From: Prorocentrum cordatum
Lineage: Eukaryota
Direction: 5' to 3'
Assembly: GCA_963575745.1 (NCBI GenBank)
Contig: CAUYUJ010000001.1
Span: 1,984,001-2,048,000, forward strand
DNA: 64,000 nucleotides
The notes below the pieces were generated by a model. It did no database searches, was not told the origin of the DNA, and was given only the letters and a program-made list of their open reading frames with translations. Shown one piece after another: positions 257 through 53,456 of this stretch. A program made the translations under genes and the position numbers. Every line of letters starts with the position of its first letter. Position 1 is the stretch's first letter.

Positions 257-287
<31 letters not shown>

Positions 288-323
288 GGCCGTCGTCGTT
301 GCCGTCGCCGTCGTCGTAGTGGT

Positions 324-385
<62 letters not shown>

Positions 386-4044: not shown

Positions 4045-4106
4045 CGACCGAGGAACCCGAGCGTCGAGTACTACCGCGTTACCCCAGCGATAACTTCGTC
4101 GAAACC

Positions 4107-5536: not shown

Positions 5537-5583
5537 CGCTTGTAGAGAACAGACCAAGACTCTTGGTCTGTTCTCTACAAGCG
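5537..5583. repeat. Perfect palindrome with 23-bp arms and a 1-nt spacer
   Basis: cgcttgtagagaacagaccaaga-c-tcttggtctgttctctacaagcg. Confidence 0.95.
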
Positions 5584-6238
5584 GGATTCGGATACTGGCT
5601 TGTGGTGGCGGGAAAACTGGTGAAGGCAGTCACCGTCGTGGTCGCCGTCGTCGTTGTCGTCGTGATCGTCGTGGTCGCCGTCGTCGTCGTGTTCACCGTC
5701 GGTCGCCGTCGTCGTCGTCATCCTCGTCGCAGTCGCCGTCCTCACTCATGGTCACCCCCATCCTCTCATGCTTCCTAATCCCTGGCATGCCACCCCCGCC
5801 CTCCTACCTCCTCCCGTTCCTGCCGGAGGCGACCCGCGACGTGGACTGGATGCTCTGCGGCGACAGGTGGCCTCTGGAAGAGTTGAGGCTAAAGGGGGCA
5901 CTGAAAGGCGAGGCGGATGGGGGGGCGGAGGAGGAGGAGGAGAGGGAGGGGGAGGGGATCAAGCATGAAGGCGGAAGGGGGATGGGGAAGGAGTGAGACA
6001 AAGAGGAAGAGCCACGCGGGCGAGGGCCACCCCAGGGTGGTCGAGGGAGCTGGCGTTTGTCCCACTCCCCCGCCAGCCGCGTCCAGATCCTCCAAGCCCT
6101 CGCCGTCCCCGTCCTCCTCCTCCTCCTCCTCCTCCTCCATCCTCGCTTTCCTTCTCCCCAATGTGGGGGAGACGGCCTCCTCCTGCTCGCCCTCCTCCTG
6201 CTCGCCCTCCGCTTCCTCCTCGCCCTCCTCGGCCCAGG

Positions 6239-6709
6239 TCCCAGAAGCTGGCGAAGGTAGAGAGGGCGCGCCACGGCGTGCTGGAGTTCCTCGGCGTGCA
6301 GAGCGATCTGCACTGGAGAGGAGGCGGCGAGGTGATGCACGAGGTGACATCAGTGATGCCAGCGTTCGTCCAGCGTTGGACGGCGTCTAACTTGTACGAG
6401 GGAGTCACGGTGCAAGTGCGGCCGGGCGGGTCTTGGAAGATGATCAAGTCGGTTGCGAGCGGCATGCATTTCTTGTGCATGCCATTCTATGCCGACCTCT
6501 GCCCGGCGAACAATCGTCTCAAGGCTTACGTGGCTGCCGAAGTACAGAAGTGGAACGTGGGCAGGGTGATTGGCAAGGTGCTCTTCCACGCGATGGTCGC
6601 TAACTGCATCAGCAAGGCAACCGAGCTCATCCCAAAACTGCGCAGTGTCGTGAAGAGCTCGGCGCAGGTGGCGACGGGAGTGGAAGGGGAGGAGACGGCC
6701 AGGAGGTAG
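6239..6709 (+). CDS. Possible coding segment or exon of unknown function
   Basis: Non-repetitive, protein-like part of ORF 5993..6709 (QKLAKVERARHGVLEFLG...KVLFHAMVANCISKATELIPKL) between purine/pyrimidine tracts. No family recognised. Confidence 0.3.
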   Translation, partial: SQKLAKVERARHGVLEFLGVQSDLHWRGGGEVMHEVTSVMPAFVQRWTASNLYEGVTVQVRPGGSWKMIKSVASGMHFLCMPFYADLCPANNRLKAYVAAEVQKWNVGRVIGKVLFHAMVANCISKATELIPKLRSVVKSSAQVATGVEGEETARR

Positions 6710-6929
6710 GAGGAAAGCGAGGAGCTTTAGAGAGGGGTGGTGGCAGCAAGAGGAGAAGGAGGCAGAGAAGGTGGAGGAAACAGTTACTGGAGCGCATGGG
6801 ATGGCCCCCCGCTATCACTCCCTCCCTCTTTCTCGCCTCTCCCCCTCATCCCTTCCCTCTTTGGCTCGCCCTCCCCACCACCCGCCACCCCCCTCTCCCT
6901 CTCCTCGCCCGCCGCCGCACTTGCCTTAG

Positions 6930-7976
6930 GTGACAGTTCACGAGCTCACCAAGGAGGAGATAGAGTGGCACGCGCTCCGGGCCCATCCGGCACACGGCAT
7001 CCGCGCAGACCTCATCTGCAGGGCCACCTTCCACAGACCGACGCGGACGAGGGGACGAGCTGGCGATGATTGCGAGCACGTTGCCCGGGGACTGGATCGC
7101 GCAAACGTTTGCGCTCACAACTTGCTCCATCAACGGCGGTGGTCAGCCTCAGGAGCAGGAAGACGCAGAGGAGGCAGACCTCTGTGTGAACGATGCCGAA
7201 ATCACCGTCCGAGCGAGCGTATATTGTGCTTGTGGCACTGCAGAAGACTTATCGGACCAGGATGTACTCCCGAGAGGTGTTCATTGGTTGAGTTTCCAAG
7301 AGTGGCTCGTCAGAGAGTGGGTGTCTGTGTAGACTGCATAGCAACATCGTCTCGGTTCTGGACAAGTGACGCTCTCAGAGTTTCTGAAATGACACCGGAG
7401 TGGCCGAGTAACCTCACCATGAACTGGGCCATGAGCTGGACTACGAGCATCGAGGTGCCTAGGTGCTCTATCAGGCACAAGGCGTCGGAGTGCGCGGCAG
7501 GGCCGCGCTTGCTACGGTCAAGAACACCGATGGCAAGAGTAGCGCAGCTCTTGGTAAAGATCACGATCAAGCTGTGTTTCCGAGTTCACGGATATCGAGA
7601 TGCGACGTTGCGGAGCGCTGCAGCTGCTGAAGACAGGCCCATGGAGATCTACGAGGATAGCCAGACCGCGACCAGTTTCCTGTGCGTCGTGCACGCATGG
7701 TTCTTCGCGCAGCTCAAGAAGATGCACGTCGACCGCGGCCTAGAGTACCAGTTCGTGCCGGGCATCAAGGCGCTCATTAAGACAGGGGCGCCAACACGCG
7801 CATACAAAGACTTCGGGAGGAAGATGCAGAAAGCTGGGGGCCAGCGCGCGCACACCAACCAGAAGTCGAACTGGGCTACAGGATTCGGGCCCCAAGCTTT
7901 CAGGACTCGGGTCCCAAGCTTTCGGCGATTCGATCGATTTGCTCTCCCCCATCTACCCGGGGCGGCACTCAGGTAG
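6930..7976 (+). CDS. Hypothetical protein with a Cys-rich segment
   Basis: 348-aa high-complexity ORF. The LCERC...CLWHC...GPGC...C...CVDC cluster suggests metal binding. No family recognised. Confidence 0.3.
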   Translation: MTVHELTKEEIEWHALRAHPAHGIRADLICRATFHRPTRTRGRAGDDCEHVARGLDRANVCAHNLLHQRRWSASGAGRRRGGRPLCERCRNHRPSERILCLWHCRRLIGPGCTPERCSLVEFPRVARQRVGVCVDCIATSSRFWTSDALRVSEMTPEWPSNLTMNWAMSWTTSIEVPRCSIRHKASECAAGPRLLRSRTPMARVAQLLVKITIKLCFRVHGYRDATLRSAAAAEDRPMEIYEDSQTATSFLCVVHAWFFAQLKKMHVDRGLEYQFVPGIKALIKTGAPTRAYKDFGRKMQKAGGQRAHTNQKSNWATGFGPQAFRTRVPSFRRFDRFALPHLPGAALR

Positions 7977-9587
7977 TTCGGATGGGCCAGGAGTCGATAG
8001 GCCAGGGGCCGGGGGCCGTGGCTCTGGGGCCCCAGAGGAGGGGACGTCGGGAGGGGGAGTCAGCAGGAGTCGGGCGGTGGAGGGGGAGATTAGGAGGGGG
8101 TGCAGGAGCAGTCAGCTCAGGGGCGTACCATGTATCCCAATTCCTATCCCGGCCCATCACATTAATATCCCTGTCTGAGATCATACAGTAGTATACATAC
8201 ATAGAGTCTGACCGCGTCATGCGATTAACAAAGTTTCGAGATCTCCCCTTCGCTGGCGGGCTCCAGGAGAAGTAGGGCGAGGCAGGATGAAGGGGGGGGG
8301 ATACGGGGCATGGGAGGGGATGGGGGAGAATGTCCTCCGAGGGCGGGGAGGGATCGAAGGAGTTGGACAGGGCGGTGCGACAAGGGCAAGGGCGGCAAGA
8401 GCAAGCGCGGGAGGCGGTGCAATGGCAAGGGCAAGCGGGGGTCCGCGAGGGGCAACGGCGTTCGTAACGACAAGGGCGAGACGTTCACGACGACGTTAAA
8501 GAAGCGAGCCGCTGAGCTTCAAAAGACAAGAGTCAGTGGGCCGGGCCCCGAGAAGAGGGAGAACAGCAGCAAGGACAAGGAAGATGAGAGGTCGGCGGTT
8601 AAGGCCTGCCCTCAAGAGAAGGCCGCGGCCACTATGGCCGGGGCGGGCCTCAGGCCCAAGGTGGCACCGACGGCAAGGGCAGCGTCGGCGTCGGCATCGT
8701 TGTTTGGCATCGGCGCCAGCGACATCAGCTGCGCCGGCATCCAGGTCGGGCGCGGCATCCGCGGCGCCAGGGACACCGTCAACCAGGATCGGAAGAAGCT
8801 AAGACGGAGGAGAGGAAGAGGAGGAGGAGGAGGAGGAGGAGGAGGAGGGGGATGAGGGGGAGGAGCGGGAGAAGGAGGACGAGGGAGAACGGGTGCGGTA
8901 GGAGGGCCAGCAGCATCATCAGTCGGTAGAGGGCGAGTAGGTCGATCATGAGAGGGGGGCAGGACAGGGCGTTCATGGGCGCGGGGGAAATGGGGAGGTC
9001 AGCGAGGGGGAGGTGAAGGCGGGAGCGGGGGAGGGGGGCGAGGACGATGCGGATGAGCAAGTAGACGAGAGCAGGCGTGGGCCAGTCACGCCGCTGTCGC
9101 CTCCTTTCGCGGGCTCGTCTTCGTTAATCGATCGACAGGAGAGGGGGCGCAGAGCAGGGGGCACGGTCTGGGAGTTGTTGGCTGAGCCTTCCCCCCCTCG
9201 CCCCCAGCCTCCGATCCCCCGAATGATCCGACGGAGAGGACGCCTGATCCGCCGGGTGCGCCGCCGCCGTGGATCGCGCCCCGCGAGGTCCAGGCGCAAT
9301 ACGATGACACAGAGATACAGAGAGAGTGAGAGAGAGAGAGAGAGGAGAGAGGTGATGACGGTAGTGACAATGATGACGGAGACTGAGAAGGGGGGAGAAG
9401 ACACCAGGCCGATGATCGCGGCGGCGATGATGACAAGGATCTGGATGAATAGGGGGAGGAGAAGGAAGAGGCGCAGGCGGAGGAGGGGGAGGAGGAGGAG
9501 GATGTAGAGTGACGCCATAGCACAGATGCTCCCCCCTCCTCTCCCCTCCCCACTCCGCTTCCTCCCGAGCGCTTTTGCGGCTCAGAG

Positions 9588-10091
9588 ATGTCGATTTCGT
9601 CCGACGACGAGGAACAGAGGCCGGAGCTATACCACCTTGCAGCTCCACACCTCGGACTGGGCCTCCCCAATAGAAACACCCTCATTGAAGGGCCTGCGGC
9701 ACCGTGGCCCTTGCCGTACCCTCAGGAAGCCCCCCTGCCGCGATGGGCCCCCGATTATATCGAGATGCCGTTGCCGGCCCAACAAGCACGCTGTTGGTTC
9801 TTTCCCTGGCAATCTGTTCGGCCCCACATCCCGGAGTGCTGGGTCCTCGCATTTCACGATGATTATCGGCGCGAGGACGCGAAAATGCTAGCGCTGCTCT
9901 GGCCAGACTTCGCGGCAGAGGATGGGCGCCCTTACAAGTACCCGTGGGCGCGAAACGGGGTTTCAGGCTATTTTTCCACCTCGTGGACCTCTAGGGGCGA
10001 GCCCAATCGGTGCCGAATATTATATTCGGCACGAGGTGATATTATATTGTATTGTGCCTATATTCGGTGCCGAATATTATATTATGCCTAA
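9588..10091 (+). CDS. Hypothetical Trp/Pro-rich protein, paralogue of 4107..4550; 3' end runs into AT-rich repeats
   Basis: ATG start and similarity to the 4107 ORF as described for that feature. Confidence 0.4.
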   Translation: MSISSDDEEQRPELYHLAAPHLGLGLPNRNTLIEGPAAPWPLPYPQEAPLPRWAPDYIEMPLPAQQARCWFFPWQSVRPHIPECWVLAFHDDYRREDAKMLALLWPDFAAEDGRPYKYPWARNGVSGYFSTSWTSRGEPNRCRILYSARGDIILYCAYIRCRILYYA

Positions 10092-10140
10092 TATTATATC
10101 GGTGCCGAATATTATATTGTGCCTAGATTCGGAATATAGG

Positions 10141-12012
<1,872 letters not shown>

Positions 12013-13547: not shown

Positions 13548-13803
13548 CGCATCCAGTCCTCCTAAACCCCAGTCCTCACAATCCCCCCCACACTCCTGAG
13601 AGCACTCCACGAGGCAGCCCCGCTCAATAAGAGCAGAGGAACACGCGCATGCGGCGGCGCGCGAGGCACTGGTAGCAAAACTCTGTCTGTACGGTATCCT
13701 CTTCTTCGTCGTCGTCGTTGTCGCCGCCGCCGACGTCGTCTCGTCGCCGTCGTCGTCGTCGTCGTCGCCGCCGCCGCCGTCGTCGTTGCAGTCGCGGTCG
13801 CAA

Positions 13804-13834
<31 letters not shown>

Positions 13835-13870
13835 GGCCGTCGTCGTTGCCGTCGCCGTCGTCGTAGTGGT

Positions 13871-13902
<32 letters not shown>

Positions 13903-16900
13903 TCGTCGGCCGTCGTCGTCGTCGTCAGGGGGCCCCCTCAGAGGACTAAGATGGCCCAAAGACGGCATCAAGAGGGCCCCAAGAAGGCTACAAGAAGGAC
14001 ATATTTTTATTTGCTTGTACTTCCTTGAGGCCATCGTCTGCCAAAGCCCCTGAAGCCCCAAGACGCGAAGGAGGACGAGGATGGGGAGGCGGAGGAGGGG
14101 GGGGGAGAAGGGGGAGGGCGTGATCGCCGAGCGATGCACCTGATGTTCGACGCTTCGCGCATTCCCTTGAGCCCCTCCTCAAACGATGCCCAACGCAGCA
14201 ATGAAATGATGGGGATAGGAACGAGAAGGAAGGAGGCAGGGGACGAGGACGACGACGACAACGACGACGCCACTGCCCGTCTGTCCCCATTTTGTGCCGA
14301 GCGTGGCCCGCCGCTGCTCTGCCAATCATGCCCTCGCCCAGGCGCTCGCGCCCACCTCCTGGCGACATGGCCATGCCCAAGGCGCGGCCGCCGTTCAAGA
14401 AGCCCCGGCTCCAGATCCGGGCGACGCCCAAGCAGCGGCCGTCGTCCAAGATGCTGCCGCCCGAGCTCTGGCTCCAGTTTCAGCAGACGCCCGAGCTCCA
14501 GGGACCCGCGCCTGTGACGCCCCCCAGGCGTTCGCGTCGGGAGGACGGCGCGCGGCGGCGTCGCCGCATCGGCGGGCCGAAGCAGCCAGCATGTCCGCCG
14601 CCTACGCACCTCCTCAAGTCCCCCACGGAGGCGAAGTGCGACGGCGACGTCAGTGGCCAGGCGTCGGCATCGGCGGCGCGGACGGCGAGGCGCTCGGCAG
14701 TGCCAGTGCGCTTGTGGCACGGCGGGGCGGCGCAGTGGCAGTGCGCCTGTGGCGCCGACGGCGTCGTCAGGCGGGTGTTACACGAGATCATCATGACCAG
14801 CGGGGGGCTCGAGGCAAACTACACCGACGGCCCAATATACTGCTTCGAGTGCTGGCACCTGCTCCAGGAGGCCAGGCCCGACGTGGAGGGCATCATCATC
14901 GGCCCGCCCGATGCAAAGGTCCCAGAGGCCGACGTCGTCGAGGACCCGGAAGACGGCCATCAGCTCGTCAAAGAGGAGGCCGACGAAGAGGTCTCAGAGG
15001 ACGACATCGTGAAAGATGAGGACCCACAGGACGACCATCAGCTCGTCAAAGAGGAGGCCGAGGAAGAGGAGTACGCGATGGAGGCGGATGCCGCGGCGTG
15101 GGAGCTCATGAAGGACGACATCGTGAAAGATGAGGACCCACAGGACGACCATCAGCTCGTCAAAGAGGAGGCCGAGGAAGAGGAGTACGCGATGGAGGCG
15201 GATGCCGCGGCGTGGGAGCTCATGAAGGACGACATCGTGAAAGATGAGGACCCACAGGACGACCATCAGCTCGTCAAAGAGGAGGCCGAGGAAGAGGAGT
15301 ACGCGATGGAGGCGGATGCCGCGGCGTGGGAGCTCGTCAGCGCGGAGTCGGAGAACCCGCAGGAGGGGCCTCAGGAGGAGCCGCTTGCGGGCAATCCGCA
15401 CTGCAAGCAGCGTAGGGGGTGCATCGGACGCGCATCCTCACCAATGGTGAGGCACGTCTTCAAGTGGGGCGGGTGGCACTGGATCCCAGGCGACGTCTAC
15501 TGCACCCCGTGCTGGCAGTCCTTCTGCAGGGATCATCGGTTCAGTCGCCTCATGATGGCGGTGCCCTGGACACCCCCGGTGCGGGACCCTCAGACCGATT
15601 GATTGCGAGATGGCCCAGGGTTTGTGCGGTGTGAGGCTTGTACACAGTTGAGAGTTGAAGCATTGCTGTAGGCTTTCGGCGGGGACGCTGACGCAACTGA
15701 GCTCCTCCGGTCCCGCCGGAAGAAGGTCCAACCTAGCCCTCGCCTCCTGGCCCTCGCCCTTCTGCTCAACCTCCTGCTCGCCCTCCCCTTCTCCTCGCCC
15801 TCCCCTTCTCCTCGCCCTCGCCCTCCTGCTCACTCGCCCTCCTTCTCACCCTCTCCTCCTCCTGCTGCTCCCCCTCCTCCTCCCCCTCCTCCTCCTCCTC
15901 CTTCTTCTCCTCCTCCTCCTCCTCCTCTGCGCCCTCCCCCTCGCCCCCCGCGGCCAGGTGCCGACCAGCGGCGACGAGGTCAGGGGCATCGTGGCCGCGG
16001 ATGTCAACGCGTCCGAGGAGCGCGTCGGCGATCCCCCAGTCTTACCCTCCTCGTCCTCCTCTTCCCCCTACTCCACCCTCTCTTCCCTCCCCCTATTCGT
16101 CCTCCTCCTATTCGTCCTCCACCCTCTCTTACCTCTCTTACCTCCTCCTCGTGTTCTACCTCATCCTGTCCCTCGTCCTTATGCTCACCCTCCTCGTCTT
16201 TCCCCTCGCCCCTTAGCTTTCGTCCTCCCCTCGTCCCCCCAGGAGGCTCTAAGGGGCCAAGACTACAGCGACGGCAGCTTCCGCGGCAAGGCCGTGGACG
16301 GCATGACGATCTACGAAGACGAAGAAGGGCTCCGAGGGGCCAAGTCTACAGCGACGGCAGCTTCCGCGGCGAGGCCGCGGACGGGCATGAAGATACGAAG
16401 AAGACGAAGAAGGACTCCAAGGGGCCCAGACTACAGCGACGGCAGCTTCCGCGGCGAGGCCGTGGACGGCATGGCGATACGAAGAAGACGAAGAAGGGCT
16501 CCAAGGGGCCTAGACTACAGCGACGGCAGCTTCCGCGGCGAGGCCGTGGACGGCATGACGATACGAAGAAGACGAAGAAGGGCTCCAAAGGGCCCAGACT
16601 ACAGCGACGGCAGCTTCCGCGGCGAGGCCGTGGACGGGGCCGATCTACGAAGCAAGTTGCACCGCATGCGGCGCAGGTGATGGAGAGGAGGGCAAAGAGG
16701 GGGAACAGGCAAAGAGGGCGAGGACGGGAAGGGGGCAGGAGGGGGATGAGGGGTCCGGGATAAGGAAGAGGAGGAGGAGGAGGAGGAGGAGGAGGAGGAG
16801 GAGGAGGAGGAGGCGGAGGCGGAGGCGGAGGAGGAGGTGGAGGAGGAGGAGGAGGAGGAGAAAGAAGAGGAGGAGGAGTGGGTGAGAAGGAAGAGGAGGA

Positions 16901-17480
16901 GAGGGTGAGGGCGGGGTGCCATAGGGACAACTGGTACGAGGTGATGATCCACACGGGGGTCTTGGCACCGGGGCTCAGGGTGAGGGAGCGCGGCATCCCT
17001 CGTGCGTGGCCGCGTGTGGGAGGGACACCGACATCAGCGACAACGCGGGTTCCAGCAATGACAGCGACGTCAGCGACAACACGAACGCCTACGTCAGCGA
17101 GATCAGTAGCGACAACGCGAACGCCTGCGACTGACGTCAGCGACAACGTCAGCGACGTCAGCGACAACGCGAGTGCCCACGACCGACGTCAGCGACAACG
17201 CGGGTTCCAGCAGGCCGAATAAACATCTCCCCTACTCTCCCCCTACCACTCCACTCCCTTTCCCATCCTCCATCCTCATCCTCCGACTCCTCCTGGTCCT
17301 TCTCGTCCTCTCCCTCGCCCCCCTCCCATCCACCTCCTCCTGTTTGTCCTCTGTCTCCCCCTTATCCCCCCTATCCTCCTCGTCGGCCCGTTACTACAGC
17401 GACGGCAGCTTCCGCGGCGAGGCCGTAGACGGCATGACGATCTACGAAGCAATTTGCACCGCATGCGGCGCAGGTGATGC
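13548..17480 (+). repeat. Segmental duplication, copy 2 (of 1-3944)
   Basis: Direct comparison with 1-3944. Confidence 0.97.
14328..15602 (+). CDS. Second copy of the double-CxxC / acidic-repeat hypothetical protein
   Basis: Differs from 786..2060 by about 7 substitutions (e.g. W/R, G/D, C/R). Confidence 0.6.
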   Translation: MPSPRRSRPPPGDMAMPKARPPFKKPRLQIRATPKQRPSSKMLPPELWLQFQQTPELQGPAPVTPPRRSRREDGARRRRRIGGPKQPACPPPTHLLKSPTEAKCDGDVSGQASASAARTARRSAVPVRLWHGGAAQWQCACGADGVVRRVLHEIIMTSGGLEANYTDGPIYCFECWHLLQEARPDVEGIIIGPPDAKVPEADVVEDPEDGHQLVKEEADEEVSEDDIVKDEDPQDDHQLVKEEAEEEEYAMEADAAAWELMKDDIVKDEDPQDDHQLVKEEAEEEEYAMEADAAAWELMKDDIVKDEDPQDDHQLVKEEAEEEEYAMEADAAAWELVSAESENPQEGPQEEPLAGNPHCKQRRGCIGRASSPMVRHVFKWGGWHWIPGDVYCTPCWQSFCRDHRFSRLMMAVPWTPPVRDPQTD

Positions 17481-21555: not shown

Positions 21556-21753
21556 CCCTCCTTTTGGGGTTTCGGTTCGTGGTCGGCCAGGTAGTACGAT
21601 TGGCCCCCATCAGCCTATGACGCCCGAGCGGGCCTGCATGCGCCGCCGTTCCGACCGACGTTCCCGCAGTGGCCTGTTTTTTTCAGATACAGGTCCGAGC
21701 CCGCCGACCGACTCGCCGCATAACCTGGCGAGCACCAACTTCCCAGCGGCCGG

Positions 21754-22100
21754 TTAGGCGTCATCGTCCACGCTGGCGCCTGGACTAACCTCCGGCGGTT
21801 GTGTTTCGCGAGATGAACCTGGCCGACAGAGCCCAGAAGGCGAAGCTTGAGCCCGCGGAGGAGATCGAGCTGCCGACTCCATTGCACGGGGCAGGAGTGA
21901 GCAACGGCTCGCAGGTTGCGCATTGGCAGGTACACTCCCCCATCGCAGTTACCACCCGCGACGGCGTGAGCACGCAGCGCAGCACGCGTGCTCCCGCACT
22001 GGGGGGCGACGGCTTTGATCTCCCAGCCATGCTCGGCCTGCAGTCCGCGCGGCCTATCTGCCGGTTTGAGGAGACGGGCCTCGCGCGCAAATTCCTCGCG
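21754..22100 (+). pseudogene. Retropepsin (aspartic protease) remnant
   Basis: LGVIVHAGAWTNL (a degenerate VDxGA motif), a frameshift, then DLPAMLGL. Confidence 0.55.
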
Positions 22101-22344
22101 CTTCTTGGCCCCGAAGTCCGCGAAATCAATTGGCTCCCAGGCGCTATACATTCCGAGTTAGATGGCGTCGGCCCCAAGTGGCCACCAACGCATACCAGTT
22201 GACAACTTTGATCGACTCCAGCCACCAACATGGGGACTACCACCGAAACAGCTCACACAGCTAGCAGTGAGCAGCAACCACCAGGACAACGACAACAGCG
22301 ACGGCCGCGAGTTCAAGAAGCTCAAGATCCATCTTGCAAGCCCC

Positions 22345-22660
22345 AACGCACGAGCACATGCGCCGGGCGCGCTTCAGGCGGGAGGCCGCGACCTGCACGC
22401 CGGCGCGGACGTCGGCGTTGCGACGTGTGGTTGCGAACTGGCGTCTACTGGCGCGGCAGCTCTTGCGCCGCCGGGCACCTACCTTCGGATCGCGTCGCGC
22501 GCAGGACTAGCTCTCAAGGGTGCCGTCGTCGAGGGCGGAGCAGTGAACCCCGACGCCCGCGGCGAGATCCAGGTGATCACGCACAACGCCAGCCCGCGGA
22601 CGTTCGCGGTCGAGCGGAGCCGAGGGGTCGCCCAAGTCACTTTACTGGTACGCATCATCG
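22345..22660 (+). pseudogene. dut: dUTPase domain inside the retrotransposon, degenerate
   Basis: DLHA..ASTG..APPGTYLRIASRAGLALKG..VEGGAVNPDARGEIQVITHN...RGVAQ follows trimeric dUTPase motifs I-IV (DL; RSG; GVIDxDYRGE; RIAQ). Confidence 0.85.
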
Positions 22661-23985
22661 TGGATTCCGAGACCGTTGTCTTTTCCAATTTTCCTCCATT
22701 TTTTGTGGATCCAGGGGCTCTGGACACGCCTGCGCGACGCGCCTCAGCGACGACCTCATTCCGCTGGAATCGGGCACCACAGCGTCACCAGGGCCCCCCG
22801 GTATCTGCGTCGCCGAAGACCCCGCGCAGCAGCCCCATTGGGAGGAGGACGGGTCAGCCCGCGCGGCGGGCCCGGCCGACCTGCCCCAGCAAATTTGGGC
22901 AACGGGGCCAGGACGCCCCGTCTGGGCCCTGGAGAGGAGACGGGGCGCGCCACGAACACTACAGTATCACGGCTTCGACGTCATGCGCACGGCCGAGTTC
23001 GACGGGCGCAGCCTGGGCGTTGGCCGGTAGCACATCCCAAGCTCCACCTGCAGCGTGGCGCGGATCACCCACGACACGGACCGCGACGAGAAAGACTTCA
23101 TTCTCGACCCCTTTCCCGATTGGCGCCCCCGAGTCATGGAACCTGGCGCCGGGGTCGCGGCCCACGGCCGCCGCGGCCAACTATGGAAACGACCGCCAGT
23201 GCGACAGGTGATGGATGCGCGCGTGCCCCTCCTGACACAGCGCAGGGCCTGCCGCGTGCCCTTGGTTCCAGAAGCCAAACGCAGCAGCGCAGTTTGCGCG
23301 GTGCTTGCTGGGGCGCCCATCTGCAACCAGCTGCGCGGGCGGCGGGGCGATCGTCAGCCGGAGGGCGCGCGCGGCCTCGATGCGCCGCGAGGCCCAGCGT
23401 TGCGCGCCATGCTGCATAAGCACTTCAATCAGCGCGGGCGCGACACGAATGCGCGCCCTCGACGAGGCGCGACGGCAGCTTGCGCGCCAGACTCGAACGC
23501 GCCCCCCAGTCCCACGGGCACGCGCAGACGCGACGCCAAGCCGCTCACAACGCCACGCGACGCCCAGCGACGCGCACAGGACCACAGAACACGAACATCC
23601 CGCAGCAGCACAGTTCGAGGACGACCTGAACGGTCAGTCCCGGGGGCCTCAGAAAACGAAGAGAAAGAAGGACCGTGCGCCCAAGGCACCTACGCGGGCC
23701 GCGGAGGGGCCAGCGCGACGACTGCGGCACTGACTTCACAGGTCTGGCCCCGCATTTTCTGGGCATCCCAGCCATTGGCCAGCGCGGTCGCGCCGACGAT
23801 CGCGACGACGACGACCTCCACAGCAGCCTTGCCTCAGGCTTGCCCACGCGGTGGTTTCGGGGCTCTTCGGCTCCGGCATCGGATCGCCATCCGGCGATTG
23901 CTCAAAAGTCACGGCCCAAAACGTCATAGTCTACCTAGTTCGACGAAATATACCACCTCCTCACTCACCCTACCTCCGTCGATAC

Positions 23986-24630
23986 GGCATTGACATCATG
24001 GAGACAGGCGGTGAGGAGGCGCGGGCCAGCAGACTCGCCGTCCGCCGCCGCCTCAGAGCGGGCGCCAACTTCGACTGAGCAACAGGTTTGTTCATCGACG
24101 ACGAGAACCAGCAGAGAGCCCTGGCGCGACATATCCGACACAATCGACCCTCAGTGGTCACCATGGGTCCCATCTGCTAGCCTTTCGGTCGTTAGGCCAT
24201 TTTCAATTACGTATGCAACTGCCGCACTTGGCTGCGCTCCTACGCGGACGGGGCCCGATCGGCCGACTCTGTGGCTACATGGCACTGCTACAGCTGCAGC
24301 TCGGCGGCTACTTCGCCAACGAGCTGCCCGACCCATCGCGGCCGTTCGTCGAGCCGCCTTGGAAGGTGGCGCCGGCAGTACCGGGCGCGCGCAAGGTCAT
24401 CTTCAACCGGCGCCAACTGGGACTTCGAAATCGTTGCGCGGGTATTTTGAGAGACCACTGGCCTGGTCTCCAACGCCCCAGGGCACCTCGAGCAGTTCGA
24501 GAGCCTCAAGTGCACCAGAATGCGCGCCCGCGTGCACGTCGGGGGCCGCAGCAGCACCGACGCCCAGGTCTGGCTTTGAAAGATGGACGAGCGGCTCGTC
24601 CGGGGCATCGTGGACTTACGCCGCCGCCTG
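23986..24630 (+). pseudogene. C5 cytosine-methyltransferase-like domain remnant in the copia pol
   Basis: Read across stops and frameshifts: IDIMETGGEEARAS (motif I-like), ANFD*ATG, VVTMGPIC*PF (PxC, motif IV), YFANELP (ENP-like, motif VI), FNRRQLG, LVSN..LKC, AQVWL*KMDERLV. Collinear with the domains at 42700-43432 and 45240-45985. Confidence 0.6.
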
Positions 24631-25289
24631 AAACGCTCGCATCTCGCGAACTATGTTCGCGAATGCGACGTCGAAACAGCAGCCTGTCCAGCAGCGGCCT
24701 CCCGGGCCACAGCGGGCGAAATCGGGGGCGCCATGGCCGCCGAGCGCGCGCGCTACTCGCGCAAGGCGCGCCGGCGCAACGCGCGGTCACTTTCGCCCAT
24801 GTGCTCCCGAGAAACGGCAACTAGCAGGCATCCTAACGGCGCCCGGCTGCGCTGGGAATGCCCAGGCTGCCGCGAGGAGAAAGAACGCGATCTCCCTGCG
24901 CGCGCCCGCGAGTTAAGCAAGCGCAGGTTCGCGGGCCCGCGCAGACGGCCGCGCCCGCGCGCCAGCCAACGCCCCCAAGCACCAGCGCGACCGGGAGGAC
25001 CAGCAAGCTCAACTGCCTGGAGGAGCCGACCTCGGAGCAGCAGACGAACTCGACTTGCCGCCGGCACCCGCAGGCGCGCTCATCGCCCAGCGTTGGAGCT
25101 CAGGGTGGCGTTTCCGGCAATTCAGCTGGACCACGACTACGAGCCAGTGCAGCAACCAGTTGAGTACCGAGACGTTCAGCACCGCGAGCTGCCGACGCCT
25201 CTGCGGGCAATCCAGCGCCTGCTGGCTGGGCTCGCTTCGACATCACCACGCCACTACGAGCGCCACGTGGCGACTCGCACGAGACATTT

Positions 25290-26050
25290 GCGAGAGCTAC
25301 GTAAGCTGCACCCCCAGCGGTGGCGCGCCACCGCGGAGGAAATGGCACGAGCGCTACGAGCAGCCAACATGCCACAGGCCATCCTCTACATCCTCCCTAC
25401 GGCGGTCAACGACTGCAGGGGGCGTCGCAAGTGGTTGCCACCAGCAAGCCAGACCGCCCCCACACTACGCCTTTCGATCCGAGTAGACCTGACGTCGAAT
25501 GCGACATCCTTCACTACATGAGCTACATGATACAGCACTTGATCTGCTGCGCCTCAAGGCGGCGCACTGGCCAGAAGCTCGCGAGCAGGTGCGCCTCAAC
25601 ACTGCTGGCGGCCATCGACTGGTCGCGGATCCAACAGTTCGGCTCGATGGAGACTTTCATCGTGGACGACGGCGGGATGACCTCTGAGTGCATTCATTGT
25701 GGAGGAGATGAGGATGCGAGGGGCGCAGGTGGACATCCGAGCTCCACGCCAGCACGCTCGTTTCATAGAGCGACGTGGCGCAATTCTACGACATGCGCTA
25801 CGCGCCCCCGGGGAGCGGCTGGAGCGCGAAGGCGCCGCCGCCCACTTCGACTCCGTGCTGGCCCACGCTGTCTTCGCGGGCAACAGCCTCACCCTTTCGT
25901 GGGCGGCGCAACCCCGCGCAACGTCGTCTTCGGCGACGGCCCCGCTGCTGGTGGCGTAGCGCAGCCCAGCCAGCTGCATCGGCGCATCCGTGACGTCGCC
26001 TTGCAGCGCATGATCAAGTATACTCCCATCGCCCGCGTTAACCGTGCCCT
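25290..26050 (+). pseudogene. Retroelement integrase remnant
   Basis: LRKLH..W.ATAEEM..L...DCRGRRKW (degenerate HHCC finger); VECDILHY..HLICCASR; QFGSMETFIVD; QHARFIERRGAILRH. Confidence 0.7.
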
Positions 26051-27149
26051 CCGGACACGCGCCGCGGAGACCGGAGGGGGGCGCTTCAACGTGGGTGACC
26101 AGGTGGAGATCCACCGGCCTCCTTGCACGAAAGACGCGTCGGGCTGGGAGCACGTTCCATTCTGTGGATCCAGCCAGAGCTTCAGACTGCAGGACGCACG
26201 GGCCTTCACCAGTGCCGTCTTCGACGCCATGGGCACCGGCGTGGCGCGAGCAGGCCTGGCCTGGAACCGCATGGAGGACCGCGGGGGGCGCGTCGCGGCA
26301 GGCCCAGGTGCCCGGACCTTCGGCCACTGGGAGGACGAGAAGGACAGGTAGTCGACCGAACAGGCTTGGCAACGGCCTGATGTCCTCGAGGCTCTGCGCC
26401 ACTTGTTCCGCATATGCTTTCAGTTACCAGACGTTCGGGCCGTGAGTCTTGTGCGTGGTCAGAAGTCTGCGGGCGATTGGCTGGGCTGCACCCGGAGCCT
26501 CGTTATTTGGCGGCCCCCATCGGAGCCCGAGAGACCTCCGCCAACTGCACTTGGACGGCGTCAAGTTCGACGCCCGCAGCCTCGTCGGCTAGCAGTTGCA
26601 GAACGCTCGCGTCATCCAAGTCATCTAGGGTCGCGAACATATATGATTGCAGCTGGCGCCGCGCAGGACCAAGACACGGCGTTCGACGGTCGCGTTATCG
26701 ACGCCCCCGAGGGCGCCGCCAGCGTCATCGAGGGCGGTTCACTATCAGCCCTGTCAGTGACACCCAATGAGGTCGACAGCGACTTCTCCGGCCACATCCA
26801 GCAGCTGACGCTGGCAGCCAGGCAGGAAGTCGAGGGGGCATAGGACCTCGCCCAGGAGCTGCAGGAGCTGGAGAGCACCGACAGCCAGCAGAAGGCCTAC
26901 GCTGCCGTCGAGCACGCGACCGCCAGCACGGGCCGCAGGCCACGCGAGTGGCGCGCCGGAAGACGCAGCACCGGCGTCTGCATGTCCACGCGCAGTGCCA
27001 CTACTACCTGCGCGGCGCCCCTTTGGGCGACTGCGCCAAGCTTGAAGAGAACGAAGGAGGAGAACACGTGGATTTGCACTTGGGCCCAGGAGTGCGACAG
27101 GCATTCCTCAGTTCCGCGACGGCAGTTATGTTTCCGACACGCCCACGAC

Positions 27150-28830
27150 AGCCGTGCTAAAAGTATACGCCGTTGTCATGACCGCGGCAATCGAGCGCGA
27201 CACCGCTCTCCTGGCCAAGGAGGAGGTATCGAGGCTGTCCAAAGAGGTGGCCGCAGCCATCCTCGAGGTGCTCACCATCTGGGTCAGGCACCATCGTTTT
27301 GAGCGGCGACCCCTCAATGGCGGTCGAGGCGTCGCGGGCTCCAGGCGCGCGGTCGAGTGGAAGCGCTAGAAGGGGCCGGGCGGCAATCTCCGATGCCGCG
27401 CGGCGCTGAGGGGCTCCGCGACGCGGGCGCCAGCGCCCTCGAGACGTTCGCCGGCGCGGCGAAGCGGGCGCCCCAGCGCATCCTGTCCTTAGAGGCGGCT
27501 TGTCGCCCAGACTGGGCGTGCGTCGCCGTGGACGTCGAGAAGGCGCTCCAGCGCGTGAACTTCACCCTGCCGCCCAGCAGTGCTGCCATCCTCGGGCGGG
27601 CCCCAGGCTGCGAGTACTTCGACGAGCGGACCGAATGCCTGCGCAGCATCAGGCCAGACACGGGCTGCAAGAATGCGCCCGGGGCTTTCTCCATGAAGCT
27701 CACCGGGGTCACGCGCTCGCCCGAGTGCAACGCCAAGTTGACGCGGTGGTGCGGTGGGGCCCAGGCCCAGGGCTCGAGGTCAAACGTGAGGCGTCTGGCA
27801 CATGTGTCTCCGGCGGCTCAGAGCTACTGCTCACGCTGTCCACGCACGTCGACGACTTGAAGATTGTTGGGCGCAAGGAGCACGCAGGCAGACTCATCGG
27901 CCACATCGAGAGCGTCTTCGGAAAAATGCAGAGCGACTTCGACGACTTCACCAACTGCGGCGCCCACCACCGCAGCGCCGACGATGCTGCAGCGCTCGAC
28001 CAGGACGAGTGCATCGACGCGCTGACCCCCGTCGGGCACGTCGACCTGGCCGAAGCAAAAACCGACGAGCCGGCAGGAGGTCCGCTTCCAGACCTCGTCG
28101 TCTCCCTCCTCAGAGCGGCCGCTTACGCGCTGCTCGCGCAGCGCCGCGTCGCGGCGTGCGCCGCCGCGCTGCATAGAGTGCCAACATCAAGCTATGCATC
28201 AGGCGCTCGACGCAGCTGAAAGCCGCGGTTCTGGCCACGCAGGAGATCAAGGCGCGCGTCGCATTCCCAGCGATGGAATGTGGCAGCCGGCTGTGCGCGC
28301 ACAGCAACGGCTCGTTCAAGCGCGAGGAGGAGACGGGATGCGGCATGCGAGGCGCCGTATATGCGCGTCGTGGCAAGTGTCGCAGAACCAGGCAGGAGGT
28401 ATGCCACCTGTTCGACGCCGTGGGTCGTCTACACAAACTTGCGCGTCCAATTTCACTCGGCTCAGAGCTGCTCGCCGCCTGCAGAGCAGCCGACGGAATG
28501 TGGGCCGACCTCCTGGTCCTCCGCGAGATGGTAGGTGGATTTGTTTCAGCCGAGGAGACCTAAAGATTGAGGGAGGAGGAGGCTATGCCGTGCTGGCCGA
28601 ACTCGTGATGGACGGCATTTCCGTGTTTTCAGCCCTGGCCGTGGACCCTGCTCGACAGCCATCAGAGGGCAGCATGGCCGCGCGCGTCTGGTGGCTGTCC
28701 GATCAGCTACGCACCAGACGAATCGACTACACCTTGTGGTGCGACACCAGAGAGGCGCGCGCCGACCCAACGACGAAGGGCCACACGGGCCGCGAAATAA
28801 TTTTGAGTATCATGGACGGCGGTTTCAGCC
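27150..28830 (+). pseudogene. Copia-type reverse transcriptase and RNase H remnant
   Basis: QRILSLEAA..DW..VAVDVEKALQ; STHVDDLKIVG; HSNGSFK; ELLAACRAAD; WCDTREARADPTTKG (copia RNase H ADxxTK). Confidence 0.85.
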
Positions 28831-29089
28831 ACGATGACAATAGCGTCAAGGTGAGAGACGAGAAACTGAAGGAAGCCACGCCCACCTCACAACGCAGCAG
28901 TCGTGCCAACAAGAAGATCGACGATTCAATTGGTTGAGCCACCTGGCGCCGCATCTCCCGAGGTGTGTTCGCGAGTGCAGTCAGGCTCGCATACCGCGAA
29001 CTGCGTTCGCGAAGACGACACAGTCCATCAGAGAGAATTATCCCGGCAGGAGGAATGGGGAGACGGCGCGAGGCAGGAACGGGATATGA

Positions 29090-30700
29090 CAGGAGAGCTG
29101 GCCGCGGTCACGGCGTCAGAGATCGCGGCAGCTCTGCGTGCCATGAAGGCCGGCAGAACAGGTGCAGACGACGGGCTTGTCATGGAAATGTTGCGGACGG
29201 GACATGTCGAGTTGATGAACGATTTGGCTTCCTATTTCACAGACGTGCTGGTCGGCGCCATGGAGCCGCCGAGCGAGTGCAAAGTTGCACGAGTGTCTGC
29301 GATTGTCGAGAAAGGTTCGCGAAGCGAGCTGAAAAATTGCAATCCGATATCGATCATTCCGGCAATGGCTAAGCTGTTCAGCACTGTGCTATACCGGCGT
29401 ATCCGCGACCAGGTCGAGCAGAGATATCATGAGGATCAGTGCGGCTTCCGGAGTGGCAGAGGCTGTGACGACGCTCTACACGCGCTGCGCATGGTGGCGG
29501 AGAAGTCCGGGGAGCGCGGGAAGGAGCTGTGAATGGCTACACTGGACGTCGAAAAAAAAGCATTCGACAGAGTGCACCACGCGCAGCTGTTCGAAGCCTT
29601 GAAGGCAGCGAATGTGGGCCCAAGTGTTGTCAACGTACTCCGGGCGCTCTATCGGGACATGTCGGCCCACGTCCAGGCGGCCCCGGGGTCGGAGAGCAGG
29701 CGCTTCCAAGTGCAGCGCGGTGTCCGGCAGGGGGGCCCGTTGTCACCAGTTTTGTTCAACCTGATCATGACACAGATTCTAGACGAAGCGAGCTGCGTCT
29801 GGCAGCGGCGCGGCTATGGCACTATTGTCGGCCAGGCGCTCAACGGACGGCGCCTCACGCGCGTGGCCTTCGCAGATGATGTGACCTTGACTTCGCGGAC
29901 GTGGACGTCGTTGAAGCGCATGATCTTGGCTTTGAAGGCTGCTCTACAGAAGAGAGGCCTTCAGTTACACCCGACAAAATGCAAAGTGCAAGCAAATCGG
30001 CCAGAAGCGTCGCGGAGGGGGGGCGTCGAATTGGAGGGCGGCTTCTCGGTCAAGGTGCTGGAAGAGGGCGAACCTTTGGAGGTGTTGGGCACGATGCTTT
30101 CCTTGACCGACGCGACAAAGGTTGAGACCGAGCATAGAGTAGCCACTGGTTGGCGCAAGTTCTGGGCAATGCAGAAAATGCTGCTGAACAGAGACGCCTC
30201 CCTTTCCTGCAGACTGAAGCTCTTCGACACGTCTGTTGGTGCATGCGTCTTGTGCGGCTCGAACTCCTGGACGCCGCGCGCGGCGGAGATCCGCTTCCTG
30301 ACGGCTGCGCAGAACAAGATGCTGCGCCGGATTTGCGGCTTCAGGCGCGCGCCAGAGGAGCAGCGGCACGCTCGGGTCCAACGGGCGACAAGGCGCGGGA
30401 CAAGGCGCAGGCGGTGGGAGTGCGAAGGTGGCCGGAGGCGCACGCCCAGAGGAAATGGTCGTGGGCGGGCCATGTTTCGAGAATGACCGCCGCGCCATGG
30501 GCGTGGAGAACGACGTTATGGAGAGATTCTGAATGGACCCGGGACACGAGGAACGACGGCCGGGGCCGGCTGACCCGACCTTCGCGCGTGAGGCGCATGA
30601 AATGGGAGGACCAGATGAGGCGTTTCTGTACGACGGAAGGACACCGCAGCTGGACCGCAGTGGCCGGGAACCGCGACAGATCAGCCTCTCAGATCAGCGC
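29090..30700 (+). mobile_element. 5'-truncated, disrupted non-LTR retrotransposon (RTE-like LINE) reverse transcriptase
   Basis: EIAAALRAMKAGRTGADDG; PISII; QCGFRSGR; LDVEKKAFDRV; GVRQGGPLSPVLFN; AFADDV; KWSWAGHVSR; RMKWEDQ. In-frame stop at 29530 and a frameshift near 30390. No endonuclease visible. Confidence 0.9.
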
Positions 30701-30929: not shown

Positions 30930-31190
30930 TGAACACCTAAGGATTCCGAGGGGTTCCTAGGGCATCCTTAGGCATCCTCAGGAATACACGGGGATCCTTA
31001 GGAGTCCTTAGGAGTCCTGAGGAAGCCGGATTCCCAGGGTTTCCTAGGGATTCCTCAAGATTCCAAAGGAATCCTAAGGATTCCTAAGGATTCCTGAGGA
31101 TGCTTAACTATGCCTATGGATTCCTAAGGATGCCCACGGCCTCCTAAGGATTCCTAGGGATTCTTAAGGATTCCAATGGATTCCTACGGA
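30930..31190. repeat. Degenerate 10-bp satellite (ggattcctaa)
   Basis: Repeated ggattcctaa / ggcatcctta / ggagtcctta units. Confidence 0.85.
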
Positions 31191-32281
31191 TGCCTCAGCC
31201 TGCTTCTGTCTCAGCCTCAGCCTCAGCCTGCTTCGGCTTGCCTCAGCCTCAGCCCTAGCCTGCCTCGGCCTCAGCCTCGGCCTGCCTCAGCCTCAGCCTC
31301 AGCCTGCCTAGGCCTCAGCCTGAGTCAGCCTCAGCTTCAGCCTGCCTCGGCCTGCCTCGGCCTCAGCCATTTTCAGCCTCAGCCTGCCTCGGCTTGCCTC
31401 AGCCTCAGCCTCAGCCTGCCTCGGCCTCAGCCTGCCTCAGCCTTCCCTCCCCCCCCCATTCAGCTTCACCTTTCCTCATCTTCGGCCTGCCTCGGCGTCA
31501 TCCTCAGCCTCAGCCTCAGTCTCAGCCTCAGCCTGTCTCGGCCTGAGCCTGCCTCGGCCTCAGCCTCAGCCTGCCTCAGCCTCAGTCTCAGCCTCGGCCT
31601 GTCTCAGCTTCAGCCTGCCTCAGCATCAGCCTCAGCCTCAGCCTCAGCCTCAGCCTGCCTCGGCTTGCCTCGGCCTCAGCCTCAGCCTGCCTTGGCCTCA
31701 GCCTCAGCCTGCCTCGGCGTGCCTCAGCCTCAGCCTCACCCTCAGCCTGCATCAGCCTCAGCCTCAGCCTGCCTCAGCCGCAGCTTGCCTCAGCCTCAGC
31801 CTCAGCCTCAGCCTCAGCCTCAGCCTCAGCCTGCATCAGCCTCAGCCTCAGCCTGCCTCAGCCGCAGCTTGCCTCAGCCTCAGCCTCAGCCTCAGCCTCA
31901 GCCTGCCTCAGCTTCAGCCGCAGCCTCAGCCTGCCTCGGCTTGCCTCAGCCTCAGCCTGAGTCTGCCTCAGCCTCAGCCTCAGCCTCAGCCTGCCTCAGC
32001 CTCAGCCTACCTCAGCCTCAGCGTCAGCCTTCCTCAGCCTCAGCGTCAGCCTCTCAGCCTCAGCCTGCTTCAGCCTCAGCCTCAGCCTCAGCCTCAGCCT
32101 CAGTCTCAGCCTGCGTCAGCCTCAGCCTGAGTCTGCCTCGGCCTCCGCCTGCATCAGCCTCAGCCTCAGCCTGCCTCAGCCTCAGCCTCCCTCAGCCTCA
32201 GCCTCAGCCTGCCTCGGCGTGCCTCAGCCTCAGCCTGAGTCTGCCTCGGCCTCAGCCTGCCTCGGCCTCAGCCTGCCTCAG
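31191..32281 (+). repeat. (GCCTCA)n hexamer-based satellite
   Basis: About 1.1 kb of cctcag/cctg variants. Confidence 0.95.
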
Positions 32282-32284
32282 TTC

Positions 32285-32683
32285 GGGCATTCAAAATATG
32301 GCACACGACGGGCGTTCTGGGAACACGAAGATCACGAAGTGACCCAGAATTGGCTCCGGGCAATGAAAATATAGTACAGGAGTGGTGTTTTGGGAACTCG
32401 AAGAACACGAAGTGGCCTACAGTTGGCCCCGGGCATTCAAAATGTGGCCTGGGAGTGGTGTTCTGGGAACACGAAGAACACGAAGTGGCCTAATGTTGGT
32501 TCCAGGCATTCAACATGGGGCCTGGGAGTGGTGTTCTGGGAAGACGAAGAACACGAAGCGGCCTACAGTTGGCTCCGGGCATTCAATGGCCTGGGACTGG
32601 TGTTCTGGGAAGACGAAGAACACGAAGTGGCCTACAGCTGGCTCCGGGCATTTAAAATGTGGCTTGGGAATGGTGTTCTGGGG
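32285..32683 (+). repeat. ~73-bp minisatellite, about 5.5 copies
   Basis: Units read ggcattcaaaatgtggcctgggagtggtgttctgggaacacgaagaacacgaagtggcctacagttggctccg. Confidence 0.9.

Positions 32684-53422: not shown

Positions 53423-53456
<34 letters not shown>

Follow-up and report, generated by a model that had tools for sequence, protein, structure and literature searches.

Can one dinoflagellate retrotransposon carry both a deoxyuridine triphosphatase (dUTPase) and a DNA methyltransferase (DNMT)-like domain as parts of its own coding region? This question is raised by a stretch of 64,000 nucleotides of Prorocentrum cordatum (assembly GCA_963575745.1, contig CAUYUJ010000001.1, positions 1,984,001 to 2,048,000 of the forward strand), hereafter called the window. 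Between 21.6 and 28.87 kb it holds, in this order and all on the plus strand, a protease, a dUTPase, a poorly conserved stretch, a "DNMT-like" segment, an integrase, a reverse transcriptase (RT) and an RNase H. We found that this region is a defunct copy from a Ty1/copia-like retrotransposon family of dinoflagellates that is very divergent and branches deeply. We consider it likely, as a joint reading of all results, that the pol of this family contains a module of two domains, here called W and X, that the dUTPase belongs to one sublineage, and that X is of the cytosine-5 (C5) methyltransferase type, with W as a dead partner fold. The original prediction, made by a model from the letters of the window alone, had already given the domain order and coordinates: every item was recovered at its place on the plus strand, and the "DNMT-like" coordinates are exactly those of domain X.

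The window copy is colinear with intact relatives that have two open reading frames

The element region (21.6-28.9 kb) has a GC content of 0.58-0.66 and is open in many frames, and its longest plus-strand frame encodes 349 amino acids (aa; 22162-23208). We searched Pfam with 26 long frames and, in a second run, with 64 plus-strand frames of at least 45 aa at E ≤ 5. Apart from chance-level rows, only the dUTPase and an RVT_1 RT at 29.3-30.0 kb, beyond the element, were recognized; 60 minus-strand and 8 more plus-strand frames gave the same RVT_1 and two chance-level rows only. Since Pfam sees the dUTPase alone within the element, the other domains were identified only via relatives.

These relatives come from metagenomes and dinoflagellate proteomes. 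A protease alignment (A1) recovered 20 metagenome loci (L001-L020), and the profile made from it is present in all 20. In 17 of them the protease is followed by the N terminus of a second open reading frame (ORF); the contigs of L002, L014 and L020 end before it. At the junction of ORF1 and ORF2, there is one in-frame stop in 10 of the 17 loci and a frame change or overlap in 6, and the two are fused in L001. The original prediction had expected one ORF to join all domains; with a stop or frame change in 16 of 17 loci, the relatives have two ORFs instead. The single-stop junctions are in-frame TAG or TGA codons, and examples of junctions are found at L005:7127, L012:9984, L013:5984, L008:2313 and L016:2864 and in L001.

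In intact relatives, ORF1 comprises a gag-like region, a CCHC knuckle, a RING finger and an aspartic protease. ORF2 comprises domain W, a conserved linker, domain X, a Cys/His region, a DDE integrase, an RVT_2-type RT and an RNase H. Locus L016 is complete, with an ORF1 of 955 aa including the RING finger and an ORF2 of 2097 aa (rve at 947-1036, RVT_2 at 1561-1826), and there are eight further ORF2 proteins (P0262-P0269). On the gag side, a search with P0002 among longer proteins yielded 108 proteins, including RING-domain proteins of Polarella glacialis and Durusdinium trenchii and others of up to 1801 aa. Their C terminus is the protease, and their N-terminal half is the gag-like region followed by the CCHC string, which was read in P0159, P0229 and P0259; ORF1 of L012 has a zinc-knuckle Pfam match.

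With tblastn and profile searches, the window is colinear with the intact ORF2s throughout, in matching order and spacing. On its 5' side, a retropepsin-like protease remnant, the end of ORF1, lies at 21607-22160 (tblastn with P0154 246-429 and P0153 33-173; two frames). It is followed at 22162-22698 by the protease tail, a linker ("APSGHQRIPVDNFDRL...GLPPKQ") and the dUTPase (Pfam core 22375-22644), as seen by Pfam (PF00692), phmmer (P0001), tblastn and translation. Pfam finds nothing in the next stretch, 22.7-23.98 kb, and tblastn of ORF2 N termini against 22.6-24.1 kb gave chance-level rows only, save for the start of X. An ORF2 N-terminal profile (hmmsearch) picked up a weak remnant of domain W at 23160-23339 ("GRRGQLW...ACRVPL"; profile positions 101-162, E = 0.007 in a small search space) and the conserved ORF2 linker motif at 23714-23872 ("RDDCGTDFTGL...GLPTRWFRGS"; positions 289-342, E = 8e-6). 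The two are colinear, and their spacing is as expected from intact ORF2.

Domain X (23986-24640) is followed by the Cys/His-rich region (24641-24888, with "WECPGC" at 24853), into which high-scoring segment pairs (HSPs) of L012 ORF2 and P0267 extend as far as 24882 and 24888. The integrase, with its zinc-binding N terminus and DDE core, occupies 25194-26147 (L016 ORF2 850-1180, E = 4e-21; two frames, four stops in one HSP). The RT lies at 27112-28177 (L016 ORF2 1502-1866, grouped E = 7e-67; three frames) and includes the string "THVDDLKIV", with HVDDL at 27845. RNase H and the end of ORF2 are at 28213-28826 (L016 ORF2 1878-2081 of 2097) and stop 16 residues short of the L016 ORF2 end. The integrase and RT positions in the window are those of Pfam rve and RVT_2 on the ORF2 of the relatives.

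The window copy is a 5'-truncated pseudogene without function and without recognizable long terminal repeats (LTRs). With relatives as tblastn queries, no ORF1 was found upstream of the protease, that is, before 21607, and the copy thus has no gag and no CCHC. No single ORF joins its domains, and there are many stops and frame changes. Relative to intact relatives, the frame jumps between two frames in the protease, as 1-3-1 in X, between two frames in the integrase and as 1-3-2-1-3 in RT/RNase H; stops inside HSPs number three to five in X, four in the integrase and one in RT. A search of sequencing runs gave one DNA run sharing 0.23 of the words and no RNA run among those listed.

Three features of the relatives deserve mention. 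A RING finger (zf-RING_2, E down to 4.5e-11), an E3-ligase-type domain within gag-pro, is found family-wide between the CCHC knuckle and the protease (for example in L016:2-2866, L003:6866-10642, L012:4419-9983, P0154, P0159, P0229 and P0259). In one subfamily, pol is ~400 aa longer and has a DnaJ (J-domain) match after RNase H (P0262 2116-2166, P0263 2106-2149; L005:2-2581). Additionally, in three contigs the next gag begins about 0.1-1.2 kb after a pol end (L003:2-6769 then 6866-10642; L012:1-3258 then 4419-9983; L005:2-2581 then 2924-7126), as would be expected of elements in tandem with one LTR in common, or if LTRs had been collapsed in the assembly.

Domain X is conserved and resembles C5 methyltransferases in its predicted fold

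Every ORF2 that extends far enough, 11 in all (L005/P0262, L012, L016, L017 and P0263-P0269), contains domain X, of ~230-280 aa. Its remnant in the window is matched by all eight family ORF2 proteins used as queries, with E values from 6e-6 to 7e-20 (for L005 ORF2 371-591, 9e-12). In an alignment of 10 X sequences, the invariant residues are E-x-C-G-G, G-x-N-x-D, P-x-C, E-x-P, P-W, several Cys/His and W-x-W, and all 10 have E-x-C-G-G, P-x-C and E-(Q/H)-P in that order. The window copy retains the strings "METGGEEAR", "VVTMGPIC*PFG" and "FANELPDPS", spread over frames 1-3-1. C5 methyltransferases are characterized by motif I, a glycine loop, motif IV, which contains the Pro-Cys nucleophile, and motif VI, with a Glu.

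We then modeled X with AlphaFold (AF2; predicted local distance difference test score [pLDDT] 78.6, predicted template modeling score [pTM] 0.82). In a structure search of this model against 48,161 representative chains, ranks 1 to 10 were all C5 DNA methyltransferases (Z 8.5-6.6 over 151-194 residues), led by 3g7u (8.5), DIM2 (8.1), DNMT3B (7.5) and DNMT3A, DNMT1 and MET1 (7.3), down to M.HhaI (6.6). Similarly, in a second structure search, all 50 entries among the matches listed were C5 methyltransferases (Z 8.8-6.9, 161-199 residues), aligned from motif I to the C-terminal helix. The root mean square deviation (rmsd) from C5 methyltransferases was 3.9-5.1 over 151-199 residues. The Foldseek rows of highest probability were DNMT3A/B/L, none of them at E ≤ 0.001, and the third-ranked among the nearest three ESM Atlas clusters (0.96 for each) carries the automatic name of a cytosine-5 methyltransferase family. 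Furthermore, an hhalign path, itself not significant, puts the invariant residues of X against motifs I, IV, VI and VIII of a methyltransferase profile. The Foldseek rows of lowest E value, PIWI and endonuclease V, were discounted (TM about 0.2, rmsd 13-16).

Several results weigh against assigning X to this enzyme class. Pfam gave no match for three members of X at a threshold of E ≤ 10, nor did the PDB sequences yield anything relevant to X by phmmer or by profile search. The hhalign probability was 0.1% against Escherichia coli Dcm and 0.4% against a profile of eight C5 methyltransferases (Dcm and seven from phages). X has P-x-C where motif IV has P-C, and the spacing differs. As to structure, Foldseek of the model against the PDB gave no match at E ≤ 0.001, short-chain dehydrogenases follow the methyltransferases from Z 6.5, and a Z of 7-9 is, by the search tool's own warning, in the range common for models without a true relative. 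The models of both X and W rest on shallow alignments of 8 to 10 sequences.

Taking these results together, we read X as a much-diverged C5-methyltransferase-type domain that, judging from its model and alignment, would still be constrained at candidate catalytic positions (the conserved Cys and Glu). Most likely, such a domain would methylate nucleic acid, perhaps the element's own complementary DNA (cDNA). The earlier suggestion that the element adds 5-methylcytosine (5mC) would have its only basis in the predicted fold and the order of the motifs, since no sequence method ties X to C5 methyltransferases.

Domain W has the same kind of predicted fold without the motifs

In the layout of the relatives, the 1.3 kb for which the original prediction had no assignment is the place of domain W, whose predicted fold is of the same kind as that of X but which lacks the X motifs. 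Its model (pLDDT 79.3) matched best M.HhaI (Z 9.5) and 3g7u (Z 9.3), followed by DNMT3L, Dnmt2, MET1, DIM2 and DNMT3A at Z 8.7-8.8. Generic Rossmann-like and receiver folds are interleaved among these matches at Z 8.9-9.0, a further point against the methyltransferase-type reading. Only P, G and W residues are invariant in W, and hhalign found no sequence relation between W and X (probability 0.2%). From its model, W is read as a catalytically dead, motif-less copy of the fold of X, with which it may partner.

It is possible, if somewhat unlikely, that X and W are Rossmann-like pol domains with another role, such as nucleotide or nucleic-acid binding, another transferase activity or a structural part of the pre-integration complex, and that they share only a general fold with C5 methyltransferases. 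The failure of all sequence tests that could link X to these enzymes fits such a role, as do the lack of a Foldseek match for X at E ≤ 0.001, the middling Z scores and the dehydrogenase, receiver and TIR folds found close behind the matches of X or between the methyltransferases for W. On the other hand, C5 DNA methyltransferases take ranks 1 to 10 of the first search with X and all 50 entries listed in the second, over the whole catalytic domain. Moreover, the invariant residues of X come in the order glycine loop, acidic residue, Pro-x-Cys and Glu, and the nonsignificant hhalign path sets them against motifs I, IV, VI and VIII. We keep to the reading of X as a diverged methyltransferase-type domain with W as its dead partner.

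A bolder version of that reading, which we regard as rather unlikely, is that W and X form a hidden tandem methyltransferase module (inactive W and active X, in the manner of DNMT3L-DNMT3A) that methylates the element's cDNA or nearby DNA. The module would then represent a far older and independent DNMT capture, missed by PF00145 surveys, and an element of the dUTPase sublineage would itself set both the uracil and the 5mC content of its cDNA.

The family is placed with Ty1/copia

RVT_2 (PF07727) is the only RT family matched in all six family ORF2s examined, and RVT_1 was never matched. The scores were 28.7, 28.7, 30.8, 33.2, 34.9 (P0267) and 56.5 bits (P0269), with a curated cut-off of 31.6; three of the six thus fall below it, and rve is below its cut-off in all. 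The window copy itself has no Pfam RT match within the element frames scanned. The domain order, protease-integrase-RT-RNase H, is given by the colinear tblastn map, with the protease upstream. This order and the RVT_2 matches place the family with Ty1/copia, in agreement with the original prediction of a copia-type element: it is one colinear element with the integrase before an RT that is of the RVT_2 type in the relatives.

In an RT tree of 23 rows, none of them a canonical reference sequence, the family and a piece of the window (27411-27713) form one clade (94/96). This clade adjoins RVT_2 copia RTs that carry dUTPases, although the join is weak (79/64) and the family stem is long (2.54); gypsy, caulimovirus and long interspersed nuclear element (LINE) RTs are on the other side. 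Phylogenetic placement of the RT bears out membership of the window copy in the family beside RVT_2 RTs, and is less firm on the join itself.

The long stem and the weak join would also be expected if the family were a separate deep LTR-type lineage, not Ty1/copia proper, that shares only the order of integrase before RT. The subthreshold RVT_2 scores in three of six members and rve scores in all, and the extra domains unlike those of canonical copia, point the same way. Nevertheless, we consider this quite unlikely: RVT_2 and never RVT_1 is matched in six of six members, with up to 56.5 bits in P0269, and the order protease-integrase-RT-RNase H is kept. Additionally, elements of ~10 kb with integrase, RT, RNase H and LTRs (SmTCL1-4) have been described in Symbiodinium microadriaticum and placed in Ty1-copia (Chen et al. 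2017, PMC5776459). By description, the only basis of this comparison, the family is like SmTCL1-4 in its dinoflagellate host, its size of about 10 kb, its integrase upstream of the RT, its RNase H and its RT grouping with Ty1-copia. Unlike the family, SmTCL1-4 as described have no RING, dUTPase or methyltransferase-like domain named.

The dUTPase is fused to the protease and marks one sublineage

In the window, the protease motif reads "GRLGVIVHAGAWTNL", with H at 21769 in place of the catalytic D of the family. The dUTPase at 22375-22644, which lies within the 349-aa frame, is recognized by PF00692 (E = 1.8e-11, 44.4 bits versus a cut-off of 22). A word-indexed search for longer relatives of this frame found nothing; phmmer against 1.84 billion representatives gave 2364 matches at E ≤ 0.001. 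The best match was P0001 (60% identity, E = 4.7e-56), and the similarity to P0001, P0002, P0003, P0005, P0009 and P0010 extends over the region before the dUTPase as well. P0002, P0153 and P0154 each have, within one ORF, a DSGA protease, then a conserved tail with linker ("APSGHLLIPVDDYEK...GGLPPKQ") and, last, a dUTPase that is complete; the same tail and linker are also found in the window. P0154 has a RING finger upstream of the protease, and its dUTPase scores 121.2 bits over the full-length Pfam profile.

Trimeric dUTPases are defined by five conserved motifs. P0002, P0153 and P0154 keep all catalytic motifs, and those of the window are decayed: it has "GAVNPDARGE" versus "GVVDPDYRGE" in the relatives, and the C-terminal "RG..GFGSTG" is lost. 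The carriers of the dUTPase in the family are P0001, P0002, P0003, P0005, P0009, P0010, P0151-P0154 and the window. In the 20 metagenome loci no dUTPase was found, and only linker residues were matched, in 13 of them. The dUTPase, absent from all 20 loci, thus marks one sublineage and is an add-on. Lack of the dUTPase or of the DNMT segment in other copies had been named in the original prediction as an observation that would speak against it; of the two, the dUTPase is indeed lacking from these loci, and X is present wherever the ORF2 reaches it.

A tree built from 80 dUTPase domains groups the six of the family, the window's among them, in a single clade (Shimodaira-Hasegawa approximate likelihood ratio test, 88), with the window as sister to P0001 (98). 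Neither the gypsy and copia dUTPases sampled nor the multi-repeat dUTPases, including Breviolum P0155, fall with this clade; with few columns and no taxon labels, the deeper forks of the tree have no resolution. In P0155 (Breviolum minutum model symbB.v1.2.031287), three dUTPase domains in tandem come after a UBR-box zinc finger, and the multi-repeat dUTPases P0004, P0006 and P0012 cluster with it.

Two further observations count against a single element built of all these parts: self-blastn of the window found no direct repeat pair (LTRs) around 21.6-28.9 kb, and a dUTPase is seen together with ORF2 in no family member but the decayed copy of the window, the intact protease-dUTPase proteins coming from contigs of 1-2.3 kb. 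That the stretch is a mosaic, with a dUTPase fragment and/or an unrelated methyltransferase-like fragment in or beside a copia remnant through nested insertion or chance adjacency, is nevertheless highly improbable: the heavy decay of the copy and its lack of LTRs, the different element (LINE RT) that abuts its 3' end and the absence of the dUTPase from the metagenome relatives would fit it, but protease, linker and dUTPase are one intact ORF in P0002, P0153 and P0154, with the same linker in the window, X and W are in one ORF with integrase and RT in L016, P0263, P0267 and P0269, and the order and spacing of the window are those of intact ORF2 throughout. The dUTPase and the "DNMT-like" segment are thus built-in and not nested, as the original prediction had it.

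Comparison with known elements

Cytosine-methyltransferase domains in the coding region of retrotransposons are known from SymbioLINE-Dnmt, SymbioDIRS-Dnmt3 and KnitGypsy-Dnmt3, for which methylation of their own cDNA was proposed, according to excerpts of de Mendoza et al. 2018 (PMC5890265). The same excerpts report DNMTs in Symbiodinium LINE and DIRS elements and state that Symbiodinium Copia "lacks any DNMT domain" (PMC5890265). A 2025 survey based on PF00145 searches (E < 1e-4; PMC12344493) refers in an excerpt to the 2018 work for DNMT3 in "LTR Copia and DIRS" elements. Like the three Dnmt-bearing elements, two of which are of Symbiodinium, the family described here would be a retrotransposon with a methyltransferase-type domain in its coding region, here a predicted one. 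However, as far as the excerpts go, those DNMTs belong to LINE, DIRS or gypsy elements and were found by Pfam PF00145. PF00145 does not recognize X, which is located on the N-terminal side of a DDE integrase, in an RVT_2 element, and itself comes after W, the motif-less second copy of the fold. The backbone consists here of a DDE integrase and RVT_2, and is neither that of a LINE (endonuclease and RVT_1) nor that of a DIRS element (tyrosine recombinase). We also considered whether X and the LINE RT at 28.9-30.5 kb could be a SymbioLINE-Dnmt; this was rejected, as a copia-type integrase, RT and RNase H lie between them and X is within ORF2 of intact relatives.

The putative pairing of W and X recalls that of DNMT3A and DNMT3L (PDB 2qrv, 4u7t), in which an active C5-methyltransferase domain is combined with an inactive copy of the fold, a likeness that comes here from predicted models. 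DNMT3L is among the matches of W (Z 8.7-8.8), and DNMT3A and DNMT3B are among those of X (Z 7.3-8.2). Unlike DNMT3A-DNMT3L, W and X are in tandem in one polyprotein, and hhalign gives no sequence relation between them.

Betaretroviruses and non-primate lentiviruses are dUTPase-bearing retroelements. Tcn1-like chromoviruses of fungi and plants are reported to bear a dUTPase as well (PMC2864245), and the chromovirus-like proteins P0160, P0163, P0169 and P0173 have the order protease-dUTPase-RT. In all these, as in the family, a trimeric-type dUTPase lies inside gag-pro-pol and adjoins the protease. In contrast to them, the family is copia-type and has its dUTPase at the end of ORF1, between protease and recoding site; this dUTPase forms a clade of its own. 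The RVT_2 copia polyproteins P0197, P0227, P0231 and P0235 (ENA/Logan) likewise combine a copia-type RT and a dUTPase in one polyprotein. However, their dUTPase is located between the C-terminal SH3 domain of the integrase and the RT, not after the protease, and belongs to other dUTPase clades; from this different placement and these clades, it was probably gained separately. We found no description of a dUTPase placed between SH3 and RT in copia-type elements in the literature searched. "Retrovirus-related dUTPases" are expanded in a clade C Symbiodinium genome, with many intronless genes, some of them with RVT domains (Shoguchi et al. 2018, PMC6001144, from excerpts). In those excerpts they are reported as a gene-family expansion, with no element architecture given, so that the likeness is by description only.

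For the layout of the family as a whole, no description was found in the main texts searched on dUTPase with copia, dinoflagellates or Symbiodinium, or on methyltransferase domains in dinoflagellate copia. The architecture, suggested to be undescribed from the start, is real and, as far as searched, undescribed.

Proposed mechanism and implications

In our model, the ORF1 products would build the particle and be cleaved by the protease. Read-through or frameshifting at the stop or frame change between the ORFs would give Gag-protease-Pol. In the dUTPase sublineage, the enzyme would be made with every Gag-protease molecule and hence be packaged, lower dUTP at the site of cDNA synthesis and leave less uracil in the cDNA. 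This would be analogous to betaretroviruses and non-primate lentiviruses, in which packaged dUTPase lowers uracil uptake into cDNA. The substrate of the W-X module would be nucleic acid in the particle or pre-integration complex; in the simplest case, it would methylate cytosines of the cDNA, which has also been suggested for other retroelements with a DNMT.

Few retrotransposons bring DNA-modifying enzymes of their own. Should X be a working methyltransferase, the copia-like family would have possessed such an enzyme throughout, hidden from profile searches. A defined protein would then allow tests of which enzyme deposits 5mC in dinoflagellates and of whether elements mark their cDNA themselves. 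The excerpts of the 2018 study tie Dnmt-bearing retrotransposons of dinoflagellates to exceptional genome-wide CG methylation (PMC5890265); there, and in later surveys made with the Pfam DNMT profile, the abundant Copia elements of Symbiodinium were reported to have no DNMT domain. On the bolder reading given above, the W-X module could add to the unusual CG methylation seen across Symbiodiniaceae genomes. The copia-like family may perhaps be the commonest LTR type of dinoflagellate genomes. Its close relatives with and without a dUTPase offer a clean natural comparison of what a retroelement gains from this enzyme. The RING finger in gag-pro and the DnaJ tail of some pol proteins add to the picture of unusually gene-rich retroelements.

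Neighboring features of the window

Just past the end of the copia ORF2, a separate, 5'-truncated LINE-type element lies at 28870-30483 on the plus strand. Its RVT_1 is matched by Pfam (E = 8.8e-23) in the frame 29533-30483, with a weaker N-terminal piece at 28870-29529 and one frame change. A second fragment of the copia-like family, the gag-like N-terminal half of ORF1 as matched by many relatives (for example P0240 228-683, E = 1e-52), is found towards the end of the window at 61937-63790, also on the plus strand.

The window also contains a segmental duplication of 3.9 kb with 99.4% identity (1-3944 and 13548-17480), the first copy of which ends at an assembly gap of 100 N (3945-4044). Further repeats of 89-94% connect 10.2-11.2 kb and 17.0-18.1 kb. 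Short tandem repeats with periods of about 9-22 nucleotides form long arrays at 31160-32680, 52990-54320 and 56480-57030, and GAG/GTC-type triplet runs are scattered over 0-20 kb.

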